The notes under the pieces: model-generated
The model's database searches: none
Seen by the model: only the letters and a program-made list of their open reading frames with translations
What the model was told of the DNA's origin: nothing
Part shown: piece by piece, positions 57,407-63,624 of the stretch
Layout: each line of letters opens with the position of its first letter
Numbering within the stretch: the stretch's first letter is position 1
Made by a program: the position numbers and the translations under genes
DNA from: Nitrososphaerales archaeon
Lineage (GTDB): Archaea > Thermoproteota > Nitrososphaeria > Nitrososphaerales > UBA213
DNA length: 64,000 nt
Direction of reading: 5' to 3'
NCBI GenBank assembly: GCA_965197925.1
Contig: CBDAOC010000020.1
Span: 704,001-768,000 of the forward strand

Positions 57407-58285
57407 CAACTGATCCCAAAACTGATCATTTAGTGAATAATTGACGATCATTTGGATCTATTTGCAATGCTGCCCGTAGCAGATCATGAAATTTCAGGAG
57501 ATAACAGGTGAACAATGGAAGATGATATCACCGCATCTCCCCAAGCCAGCCAGAACCGGAAGGCCAAGGGCAGACGACAGAAAGACAGTCAACGGAATCC
57601 TGTTTGTCGGGATAACAGGATGCAGGTGGACTGGGATGTCACAAAGGTACGGCTCCAAATCAACTGCGCACCGCAGACTGCAGAACTGGCAGCGACGTGG
57701 AATATGGAAGAATATCCTCTCCGCTGCAGTCAAATCAGCCCACAGATCAGGCAAGATGCAGCTGCAAAAAACGGTCGATTCGTCATCAGTTCCGGCCAAA
57801 AAAGGGGAAGCGTCATAGGATACAACGGATTCAACAGGATTTCAGGCACAAAAATACACGTTGCGGTGGAACAAAACGGACTGCCAGTCTCAGTAGTGAT
57901 GGGTCCTGCAAATCAGCATGACTCCCAGATTTGTAGACGTGATGGATGGCATCTCACAATATCTGGATGAGAGATCTATCAGAAAAATTGCGCGGTGCCA
58001 AGCAGACAAGGGCTATGATGCAGAATTCATCAGGAAATACCTCACCAAAAGAAAAATCTCTGACTGCATGCCTTACAGAAAAAACAGTAAGACACAACAA
58101 CAAAATGATAATACAGAACAAATACCTATACGGCAAGACGCGCTATGTTGTGGAGAGATTCTTTGCCTGGTTGAAGAATGGGTTCCACAGAACCAGGATC
58201 AGATATGAGAAGAATGCACAAAACTATCTGGCATTTGTTATCATTTCGTCGATTATGATGTATTGGAGAGTATTGGGATGACTTC
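57407..58285 (+). mobile_element. IS family B copy B3 nested in IS A6, defective
   Basis: Same termini as B1 and B2. TSD ATT/ATT. Confidence 0.96.
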
Positions 58286-59119
58286 ATTACCATTCCTGTA
58301 GGCAATGAAGATGTTATGCTTTCATACATCTTGTTATCAGTAATGCTAGCTGTTGTGAAATCAGCTGATAATGGAACTATCAACGAACCTGTGCTACATG
58401 CTAGATGCATCTTGTATCCGAATACCCATCCCTTGGTTCTGCTGAATCCCCATCGAGCATCTGTATCTATACCGGAGCGTGGTACTTCGTTCTTCTTCAT
58501 GCTAGATTTGTGCCATACATGTCCCTTTGCTTTCAACAATGAACTGTCAACGGATACTATGGCTGGGTCTACCAACCCATCTTTTATGAAGAGCATACCC
58601 ATAGCACCTATCCTTGATCTTATGTCAATTGATATGGTCTTGACCTTCTGTCGAATGTTCTTCTGTCTGGCAACCTATCAAGACCACATGCCTTCATTAC
58701 CTTCCTGTTGTATGGCATGTCTATCGAAAAATATTGATGTAACACATTGTTGCTTGGTATTCTTATCCATACTCTAACGATGAAGCATCTACCATAACTG
58801 TAGGAGAATAGTAGAATGGTCTACCCTTTTCCTATTAGGTTTTGACCAAGGAATCACGTCAATCAAAAATAATATACGAAGGAGTATCGAGTCTGAGCTA
58901 AACACATTACCAATATGAACTAGAACCTGATCTTATCGTTTCGAACTAAATTACGCCAAAGCCTCAATTAGCTATCTACTCATCAAGATAATAAAAGTAG
59001 GGGTAAGTAAGAAGGTAAAGCCGGGTCGAGGTAAAGATGAGTCAATTATGCGACACCTCATTGGTATGAAGAAGTATCTACCATACTGTCAAACCATAAA
59101 TTTATCGCAGAACACGAGC

Positions 59120-59221
59120 TATGCATGACATCAATATTTTTCGTTAGATATGGTATACAACAGGAGAGTTATGAAATCATTTGGATAGGTGCCAAATATA
59201 AGAACTTTCAACAGAAGGTTC
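59120..59221 (+). pseudogene. Old remnant of a family-A-related transposase N-terminal region
   Basis: Encodes HQYFSLDMVYNRRVMKSF...RTFNRRF, homologous to the A-family HQYFSIDMPYNRKVMKAC...RTFDRR. Confidence 0.75.
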
Positions 59222-61292: not shown

Positions 61293-61569
61293 AAGTAATT
61301 ATTTCAATAAATAAAATTGCTATACAGACATGGATGTTCTATATGATGGACATCTGAAAACTTTTTAGAACAAAAATATTATACTCTCATTACAACCTAA
61401 AGATGTTGAAGTCTGACGTGAACTAATCGTTAGAAACTAATTGAGTTAATTTCTAACAACCAGAAACAAACTCGCCTAATAGACAAATATCCTTGACATC
61501 CTGGGCTAACCCTCCCCACCTCCGTGAGTAGAAATCCCTGGCGTGACTAAATTGTGATGAAAGTAGAAA

Positions 61570-61593
61570 TTGTTAACAGTTCGTATCAAATGT
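61570..61593 (+). repeat. 24-bp direct repeat, copy 1 (candidate recombination site)
   Basis: TTGTTAACAGTTCGTATCAAATGT; 23/24 identical to 61991..62014. Confidence 0.85.
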
Positions 61594-61633
61594 AAAAAAA
61601 GAGTTAATATTAGTCCGCAATAAAAAGTTCTTA

Positions 61634-61948
61634 GTGATTTATTCCGTTAAGGCTCGATACATTGAAAATAAGATGGGAGAATTTTATCAAAAACTAATCG
61701 ATGGTACAATTCAGAATCAAAAAATTGATGGTTATGAGATCGTTAATTCTATGAAACGTGCTAAAATCACTGAACCAAACATAATCCAATGGTCTGAGAT
61801 GTGTCTTTGTCCATCGCCCTTACAACATGAACGTGCGACCGTGTACAATCATTTTCTAACCGATATAGAGACTGAGGTTATAGATGATTATGTAGAGTAT
61901 TAAGGCGAGTCTTTTATGGATTTTTTAGCAAAACAAAATAATGAATAA
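61634..61948 (+). pseudogene. Hypothetical protein between the 24-bp repeats; ORF stops at 61903, probably prematurely
   Basis: 89-aa ORF. The same frame continues 14 codons (GESFMDFLAKQNNE) to TAA 61946..61948, just before the hairpin. The premature-stop reading is inference. Confidence 0.6.
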
Positions 61949-61990
61949 TCCATCGAGAGCCGTACTGGTTATAAGATTAGTTACGGACTC

Positions 61991-62014
61991 TTGTTAACAG
62001 TTAGTATCAAATGT
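61991..62014 (+). repeat. 24-bp direct repeat, copy 2, preceded by a bulged hairpin (61954..61993)
   Basis: TTGTTAACAGTTAGTATCAAATGT. Confidence 0.85.
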
Positions 62015-62790
62015 CAATCATAAATTCTCTTTTTAAAAATAATTTAGTGATAACGGTGTGACCTATTCATCTTATGATTAATTCCTGTTAGCGACTCGCT
62101 AAAATCTCTTTTGTTTGCATTTAGATCGACTTCCCTAGTCTTTTCTCTGAATATTCCTATGTCAGACAGATTTCTTGAAATAATACTTTGTCTCAGTCTG
62201 TTTGGATTTTTTGAATTTGTAATGATCCTTCTTTCCTTTGAGTTACAACATATTCACTTTCATTAAGACCTTAAGCATTATCCAACTAATCATAACGTGT
62301 GTATTAATCTAGATAAAGGACACAATTCCGTGCCTAGGAAGGGGATTTCTCTTTTTAGTCAATTCGTGTATGTGTTTTGACTAGATGGAAGAGCCAGAAT
62401 ATGTTTCTGCTACAAACCTATATGGTTCAAAATATGTAATTTTGTTTTGTTAAGTTTTTTACCCAAAAGATTGTATTCTGTCCAAAACTCTGTACCATGA
62501 ACATATTTTAAATCAGTAGATTTTATGATATTAACTTGTGGAGTTAACACTTCATAATTGCTAATGGTTATAATAAAGTCCCAAATTTTGTCAACGTTTT
62601 GATTTATTATATCTAAATTATGAATTTACAATGAATGAATGTGTAAGTACGGTGTTCAAAGATAATAAACCAAGAATGTTTGAGGACATTAAGGAAGATC
62701 ATCTAATAATGAGCTTCAAGTAACCGGTTTGTTACTTGATTACCCATGTGTTACTAGCTTACATAAATACAAGGCAATTATGAAGTATTA

Positions 62791-63624
62791 ATGGCAAATC
62801 AAAAAATTGCAGTTGTTACTGGAAGCTCAAGTGGAATAGGACTAGAAACTGCAATACTTCTAGCAAAAAATGGTTTTAAGACGTTTGCCACAATGCGAAA
62901 TACTAACAAATCTGACATAATAAAACAAAGATCACAGTCTGAAAATCTACTAATAGAAATACTTCAACCTGATGTAACTGATGATGCATCTGTAAAAAAC
63001 GCAATTAACACTATAGTAGAAAAAGAAGGACGGATTGATGTTCTAGTAAATAATGCAGGATATGGAATAATGGGTGCTGTTGAAGACCTATCTTCTGAAG
63101 AAGTTAAAAATCAATTTGACACTAATGTCTTTGGTCCTTTTCGTACTGCCCGGGAAGTTTTACCTACTATGAGAAAACAAAAAAGTGGAAGAATAATTAC
63201 AATTAGTTCTATCACTGGATTTATGGGAATGGCAGTGATGTCTGCATACGCAGCTTCTAAATTTGCAGTTGAAGGATTCACCGAATCTTTACGACATGAA
63301 GTTTCTCAATTTGGGATTCACGCATGTGTTATAGAACCTGGAGCTATCAAGACCAATATACAGTTGCAGGCCGCAAAAGAATCCATGGAAAATTCTGCAT
63401 ATTCTGACATGACCCAAGCATTGGGAAAAGCAATGGTGAATATGATGGAAAATCGATCCTCTCTTCCTAGTGTCGTTGCTGAAGCGGTACTAAAAGCGGC
63501 AACAGCGGAGAATCCTGAGACTCGATACACAGCCGGTGAAGACGCTAAAATGGTACAACAAGCAAGAAAAACAAAATCGGATAAAGATTTTGAAGAATTT
63601 ATTCGAACTAGCTTTATGTCTTAA
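62791..63624 (+). CDS. Short-chain dehydrogenase/reductase
   Basis: TGSSSGIG, LVNNAG and YAASKFAVEG motifs. Confidence 0.93.
   Translation: MANQKIAVVTGSSSGIGLETAILLAKNGFKTFATMRNTNKSDIIKQRSQSENLLIEILQPDVTDDASVKNAINTIVEKEGRIDVLVNNAGYGIMGAVEDLSSEEVKNQFDTNVFGPFRTAREVLPTMRKQKSGRIITISSITGFMGMAVMSAYAASKFAVEGFTESLRHEVSQFGIHACVIEPGAIKTNIQLQAAKESMENSAYSDMTQALGKAMVNMMENRSSLPSVVAEAVLKAATAENPETRYTAGEDAKMVQQARKTKSDKDFEEFIRTSFMS

Follow-up and report, generated by a model that had tools for sequence, protein, structure and literature searches.

A 26-bp palindromic site that probably serves the exchange of small gene modules in Nitrosopumilaceae-type archaea, and a decaying orphan module in a Nitrososphaerales genome

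In some ammonia-oxidising archaea of marine sediment, small gene modules are gained, lost and reordered between genomes at a recurrent 26-bp site (hereafter the main site), probably by way of a tyrosine recombinase that acts in trans and of circles as the form between one position and the next. What the genome sequences display is the anatomy, copy number, intergenic position and co-orientation of the site, exchanged flanks, empty alleles, a permutation and an exchange point inside the site; from these we infer the class of the enzyme (judged from the shape of the site), the circular intermediate and present activity. In the mechanism that we propose, the tyrosine recombinase would bind both arms of the site and exchange strands across its 6-bp core; a pair of directly oriented sites would free the intervening DNA as a circle with one site, and the circle would re-enter at any other copy, giving rise to co-oriented arrays and leaving single empty sites behind. 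A two-module circle re-entering by its inner site would produce a permuted module order. The pointer to the site-rich genomes came from a 64,000-nucleotide stretch of a Nitrososphaerales genome, here called the window; therein lies the value of its locus, which is itself an orphan decaying module with a pseudogene.

The window locus

Two 24-nt direct repeats in the window, at 61570-61593 and 61991-62014, are identical at 23/24 positions and lie 421 bp apart (93% identity when 27 nt are taken). A sequence-only reading had described these repeats together with a palindrome, two AGTAGAAAT repeats, a hairpin and one enclosed ORF, all of which are indeed in place. With the repeats given as full sites, the features of the module are as follows.

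61572-61581, + strand: left arm of site copy 1, GTTAACAGTT; the whole site has a matrix score of 39.5 (maximum 42.4)
61582-61587, + strand: 6-bp core of site copy 1, CGTATC, from the sequence
61588-61597, + strand: right arm of site copy 1, AAATGTAAAA, from the sequence
61594..61633, + strand: leader of the cargo gene; an AT-rich, TATA-like stretch precedes the start by about 25 bp, from the sequence
61634..61948, + strand: cargo gene of about 104 codons; start at 61634, full-length stop at 61946-61948
61947..61990, + strand: hairpin region, likely a diverged member of repeat family B (which resembles a tRNA-Lys 3' end plus a tail)
61993..62018, + strand: site copy 2, with left arm GTTAACAGTT and right arm AAATGTCAAT; matrix score 34.3
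62003-62008, + strand: core of site copy 2, AGTATC, with one change relative to the consensus

Across the whole 2.91-Mb genome there are exactly two matrix matches of at least 16, both of them the window sites, and none in the reversed genome. A direct repeat alone is not rare in this genome (pairs matching at 23/24 positions and spaced 100-1000 bp occur at 87 loci); the window repeat stands above chance because the same site recurs in other genomes. The junction at site copy 2 recurs, with 91% identity on either side, in G004, which belongs to another genus of the family. In each of four runs, from three studies, a single identical contig of 6,244 bp spans the locus, and since it does so without any difference the locus is no assembly error; the contigs of these runs, which show presence and not absence, held neither an excised or empty form nor a joint skipping the 421 bp.

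The cargo gene is a pseudogene with a premature TAA at 61901-61903, present in 4/4 runs. Its leader is likely the module's own promoter, going by archaeal promoter geometry, and similar A-rich leaders precede several of the homologs. These homologs number 573, the best being 80-89% identical; the protein matched no Pfam or NCBIfam family, and Atlas gave a weak lead to its function (DUF4936 at 0.82). Whether homologs of the gene have the same flanks had been raised in the sequence-only reading: a site lies within 8 kb at 4/39 homolog loci, and at 0/39 is the gene bracketed as in the window. The 14 kb around the closest homolog (85%, L016) contain no site, nor are the copies in G483, G486 and G487 flanked by any. 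Given that no homolog locus is bracketed alike, the case for mobility of the window module itself draws on the evidence from the site family and on the 91% remnant in G004. The neighbours of the locus are a nitroreductase and a short-chain dehydrogenase, and the integrase-like sequences of the window genome are located elsewhere, with no integrase in the window. We regard the pair as a likely relic: horizontal transfer would have brought it into this lineage, where it decays with no cognate enzyme known; the pseudogene and the lack of a recombinase nearby bear out the earlier description of a decaying orphan module.

The integron-like anatomy that had been suggested for the locus, an attC hairpin downstream and attI elements upstream, did not hold: the site is a 26-bp palindrome at both module ends, and neither a hairpin nor RYYYAAC is conserved to its left. 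Folding of the hairpin (61954-61993) is not significant relative to shuffled sequences (z -1.2, 23/200 shuffles equally good). Its region resembles a family B copy in L271 (80.6% over 36 bp) and sequence of G004 (85%), and a family B profile matches it weakly (6.1 bits, E 0.65) at the expected place. Family B itself matches tRNA-Lys 3' ends (score 16, control 10), the ends so matched stand just before some integrases, and 14/37 family B matches abut a main site. Because it resembles a family that matches tRNA-Lys ends and often abuts main sites, the window hairpin is likely a tRNA-Lys attachment-site scar lying beside the main site. The main site, when compared with tRNA bodies, scored no better than control, and the Rfam search returned nothing real.

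Upstream of the module, the palindrome at 61429-61457 has 11/12 arm matches and a 5-nt centre, and its middle resembles a motif downstream of cargo homologs in L011, L013 and L017; as a repeat family in site-rich stretches it was not found. The GC tract and the AGTAGAAAT direct repeats (at 61527 and 61562), which had been taken for attI parts, lie beside no other site, occur in 0/8 family genomes and are of a kind met at chance level, an exact 9-mer repeat within 60 bp being present in 177/3000 and an 8-bp inverted repeat in 166/3000 random 150-bp windows. The third, degenerate site proposed at 62544 fell away with a matrix score of -15, compared with 39.5 and 34.3 for the window sites. In the left half, the 62544 sequence is similar to a variant that follows one integrase.

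The region as a whole is rich in mobile-element debris. A MITE-like repeat at 62210-62357 has more copies on contigs C1 and C18 of the same genome and in G004, and an 18-nt inverted repeat (62544-62561 / 62774-62791, 94%, 212 bp inside) ends at the start of the short-chain dehydrogenase gene. Frameshifted or truncated transposases of IS4/IS5 type occupy 57486-58602 and 58643-59219, along with a 64-nt inverted repeat pair.

Anatomy, distribution and arrays of the site

The site is a 26-bp imperfect palindrome of the form arm–6-bp core–arm (RTTWACAGTT-CGTATC-AAATGTWAAT). The consensus was derived from 147 distinct sites, 142 of which were used for the site matrix, and among the 147 there is no conservation beyond the 26 bp, left flank included; a metagenome scan listed at least 128 stretches with the site. 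Arm spacing is exactly 6 bp in 68/68 exact-arm matches from two site-rich genomes (0 at 4, 5, 7 or 8 bp), and the asymmetric core is conserved like the arms, at 85-98% per position in 124 sites. This shape suggests a tyrosine-recombinase site of the dif/loxP type. The dif layout, in the part of PMC8371274 available to us, consists of a 6-nt spacer between two arms that are each about 11 nt long, and the right arm has ATGTTAA in common with the XerD arm of pdif sites in a table of PMC13141974. Directly to the left of 25/251 sites, and to the right of 1/251, stands an inverted arm copy with another core. This copy could be an accessory site, or could form a single-strand fold of the kind seen in the CTX phage, whose attP folds into a single-strand site.

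Confinement of the motif to the window, which would have spoken for a local duplication, is not what was found, as it recurs at high copy in other genomes. It is present in 1/8 family genomes and 3/400 phylum genomes, one of the latter with the site inside an ORF. Among 61 genomes around G479, searched at up to 3 mismatches, 7 carry 15-148 copies, 2 carry 1-2 and 52 none (reversed control 0-1), and a further 56 sites at up to 1 mismatch were found in G542. The site-rich genomes, all of them fragmented and incomplete assemblies, are of Nitrosopumilaceae type; their loci are labelled Thaumarchaeota or Nitrosopumilales, including NP-theta and NP-iota, which the available part of PMC8397731 describes as clades from deep-sea sediment cores. 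In an order-level sample of completeness at least 95%, which missed most site-rich assemblies because of that requirement, the site is present in 3/111 genomes; a universal chromosomal dif was rejected on this count. In sediment runs of four studies, a one-site stretch reaches depths of 4,482, 67, 11,627 and 1,846, greatly exceeding the neighbouring sequence in every run, and site-spanning contigs carry many unrelated flanks; joints with sides of 32 letters or fewer were left out of this evidence. A link to the replication strand was rejected (GC skew positive in 24/57 stretches).

For the architecture of the arrays we used 1.04 Mb from seven site-rich genomes, in stretches chosen for holding sites (348 sites). 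Inside ORFs of at least 100 aa lie 2/348 sites (control 0), and neighbouring sites are co-oriented 149:13 when less than 1 kb apart, 51:9 at 1-3 kb and 28:15 beyond. The median module length is 575 bp; among 200 modules below 3 kb, 113 contain one ORF, 44 none and 43 more than one, and in 107 single-ORF modules the ORF lies on the strand of the site in 37 and on the opposite strand in 70. Sites often touch stop codons, are equally frequent at 3' and 5' ends, and stand at variable distances from starts. The 304 module ORFs fall into 179 families and 0/304 scored as integrase; Pfam assignments for 75 of them comprise TPR, Lrp/AsnC, response regulator, kinase, Usp, P-II, TFB, cation efflux, ferritin-like, multicopper oxidase, aquaporin, methyltransferases, ParA and Fic, next to many unknowns. 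The module genes appear to be accessory, with a homolog in the window genome for 23/148 of them vs 235/424 genes far from sites. Site-punctuated arrays of unrelated genes at gene-length spacing are thus present in other genomes, a pattern that the sequence-only reading had proposed to look for as a mark of an archaeal gene-cassette system; a fixed distance from gene starts was not seen, and the neighbours are functionally unrelated.

Several other repeat families share the arrays with the main site. Family A (CTAAGAATTAAGAATTTTCAG) is a second abundant intergenic repeat, with 88 copies in the 1.04 Mb of the seven site-rich genomes (L271-L310, L199-L238), none of them in ORFs; where it stands alone, 5/7 left and 9/11 right flanks seen twice have different partners, that is, flank exchange. 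Non-coding mini-modules of about 70 bp, composed of main site, family B scar and main site, occur in L201, L282 and L310, and in L221, L236, L226, L208 and L215 main sites follow tRNA genes (Ser, Arg, Thr, Val) at distances of about 10-140 bp. A viral origin was considered and rejected: the four exact site matches in IMG/VR are likely due to chance because three are in one phage gene, family A has 0 matches, and the integrase of L066 is without a close viral relative.

Exchange at the site and the search for an enzyme

Flank comparison was restricted to genomes because some metagenome contigs are from the same population as G479. In 107 cross-genome site pairs, both flanks are common to 3, the left only to 51 and the right only to 53; at control gene ends away from sites (n=41), the downstream DNA was kept in 23 and unrelated in 18. 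Empty-site alleles, which had been anticipated for a mobile module, do exist in other genomes in the form of five empty/filled pairs, and in the three checked by blastn the breakpoints fall on sites and the main segments are 93-97% identical. L289 cleanly lacks a 176-bp module of L292, at an identity of 95-97%. L117 and L296 share two modules, of 524 and 894 bp, in opposite order and with both junctions seen, as would follow from re-entry of a two-module circle through the other of its sites. Modules seen repeatedly were found in different contexts in 15/23 cases, two of these with mismatched lengths. A free module circle was not observed.

Sequence variants within the site locate the exchange further. 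Left-arm variants track the left flank (81/208 vs 11/257) and right-arm variants the right flank (96/204 vs 28/284), and core variants track neither (3/76, 1/54), the pairs in these counts not being independent. These patterns map the exchange to about positions 9 to 20, the middle of the site.

Integrases were sought with PF00589, NF040815, TIGR02249 and our own 24-sequence profile. XerA did not exceed the cut-off in any of 61 genomes, nor did IntI (TIGR02249) in any of 5 genomes, four of them incomplete (best 33 bits vs 265), and the scanned integrases score far below the XerC/XerD cut-offs. A quick tree of 58 integrases of at least 200 aa contained no clade common to all site-rich genomes; G478, with 43 sites, has an integrase fragment only. 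Two candidate clades were rejected, being found in site-free genomes and missing from site-rich ones. A compact integrase clade, found in 3/9 site-carrying and 0/52 site-free genomes plus G542, is a weak lead on the enzyme; it is located on plasmid-like elements, more than 1.5 kb from any site, and the window genome lacks it. The 1.8-Mb assembly of G542 has about 21 distinct tyrosine-recombinase genes, many more than its relatives, and the main site was found within 1.5 kb of none of them. At one metagenome locus (L066) an integrase precedes a site by about 620 bp; a main site immediately ahead of an integrase was not found. The absence of an enzyme is soft because the site-rich assemblies are incomplete. 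For the earlier proposal of a tyrosine-recombinase system this leaves a mixed outcome, in which the site shape fits and a co-occurring enzyme common to the site-rich genomes is missing.

Alternative explanations and known systems

The many integrases of these genomes, up to about 21 in G542, invite the explanation that the sites are scars of many integrations of larger elements, and that modules were rearranged by homology or microhomology repair across the 26-bp repeats. Family B as a tRNA-Lys-like scar abutting main sites, the other repeat families in the same arrays, family A also with flank exchange, and searches that yielded no cognate enzyme point the same way. We nevertheless consider it unlikely: the main site is unlike tRNA, the modules are small and hold no integrase among 304 ORFs, the 149:13 co-orientation, the precise 176-bp empty allele and the reciprocal permutation fit circle exchange, and the fixed 6-bp core fits an overlap region. 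The palindromic arms and the almost wholly intergenic position would also suit the site of a transcription factor or chromosome-organising protein that acts as a passive rearrangement hot spot, and the adjoining family A reads like a promoter on the opposite strand (as judged from the BRE/TATA consensus). Such a protein would hardly account for an asymmetric core conserved like the arms, for sites equally common at both gene ends and at no constant distance from starts, for functionally unrelated neighbours, for the co-orientation of neighbouring sites or for exchanged flanks, so that we hold this explanation to be very improbable.

Exchange of modules by a recombinase also has to be set against artefact and against integrons proper. 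The window genome has 2 copies only, among 87 other near-perfect 24-bp pairs, and the comparative evidence comes from metagenome assemblies, which might indicate a local duplication or assembler misjoins at a short repeat. The high-copy site in at least 8 other genomes and at least 128 metagenome stretches, rearranged partners that differ by 3-7%, arm variants that segregate with flanks, and sediment contigs of four studies spanning the site with many different flanks make this extremely improbable. A canonical or near-canonical integron, with a downstream attC hairpin, an upstream attI and IntI supplied in trans, would match the mostly single-gene arrays between co-oriented sites, and archaeal integrons exist (PMC9668308, available part). 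We give this the lowest probability of all, close to none: IntI was found in 0/5 genomes, there is no enrichment of a fold or of RYYYAAC to the left of 200 sites (left flanks -3.5 vs right -3.7 kcal/mol; RYYYAAC 6 vs 16 in shuffles), genes face either way (37 vs 70), and both module ends are the same site.

The preferred reading, module exchange by a recombinase acting in trans, describes a system that works like pdif modules and integron arrays, yet differs in orientation, enzyme and attC. As described in the available part of PMC13141974, the pdif modules of Acinetobacter plasmids share the arm–6-bp spacer–arm layout, small accessory modules, a crossover in the site and ATGTTAA, and in both systems the recombinase gene is absent beside the modules. 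Crossover within the site and spacer identity, characteristic of pdif modules, were likewise found here by sequence comparison. In the same part of that source, pdif modules lie between inversely oriented sites whose spacers vary, and they move in pairs, whereas neighbouring sites here are direct repeats with one dominant core, so that single modules can leave. It also places pdif on plasmids, with host XerC and XerD each acting on an arm of its own; here there are 15-148 copies across archaeal chromosomal contigs, no XerA was found in 61 genomes, and no XerC or XerD among the integrases scanned. Integrons, archaeal integrons and CALINs, as far as the available text of PMC9668308 describes them, have in common with our arrays the mostly single-gene units, the co-oriented sites, and the gain, loss and reordering of units. 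In contrast to them, IntI, a folded attC and an attI adjoining an integrase are all missing here; the genes, which in integron cassettes generally share one orientation, point in both directions and seem to retain promoters of their own, and the sites are scattered across many contigs, in some cases next to tRNA and conserved genes.

Archaeal dif with XerA resembles the site in having a 6-nt spacer flanked by inverted arms of about 11 nt (PMC8371274, available part); dif is single-copy and conserved across a lineage, whereas the main site varies between 0 and 148 copies in a genome and is lacking in most relatives, and XerA was not found. Closer to the window, the portion of PMC6563490 at hand reports attL/attR scars in Nitrososphaerales, short direct repeats tied to XerC-like integrases with a cargo of UspA, CBS, Zn-ribbon and multicopper oxidase, and family B fits these directly. 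The main site differs from them in that it is not tRNA-derived, its units are too small for an integrase, and it is reused at high copy; the motif is absent from four supplementary files of that paper. The available portions of PMC8397731 and PMC10746724 hold no mention of such repeats, and we found no description of the site in the open-access literature, subscription papers and bioRxiv supplements lying outside this scope.

A wider picture may be sketched, which we consider less likely than not: a genome-wide, integron-independent cassette platform of marine-sediment ammonia-oxidising archaea, in which one dedicated recombinase would serve at least 100 identical sites, much of the accessory genome would consist of promoter-carrying modules circulating between species as small circles, and families A, B, D, E and F would be parallel shuffling layers. 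Independently of that wider picture, module exchange at the main site would let abundant sediment nitrifiers gain, lose and reorder accessory genes (for signalling, stress, copper oxidases, transcription factor B and transporters) unseen by integron finders. The 26-bp site is a marker that predicts synteny breaks, and perhaps the poor assembly of these genomes, and a compact enzyme of this kind, able to exchange single modules at one type of short site, could serve as a genome-engineering tool.

Two further integrase loci may be recorded. Family F (L273:15503 and upstream, G487) is palindromic and has a spacer of 7 bp; one copy precedes an integrase gene by 122 bp, two more are on the same contig, and it is possible that the repeat and the adjoining integrase are a cognate pair. 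At L405:1435-2226 in G542, an ORF joins an N-terminal part that by eye is like transcription factor B to an integrase catalytic domain.
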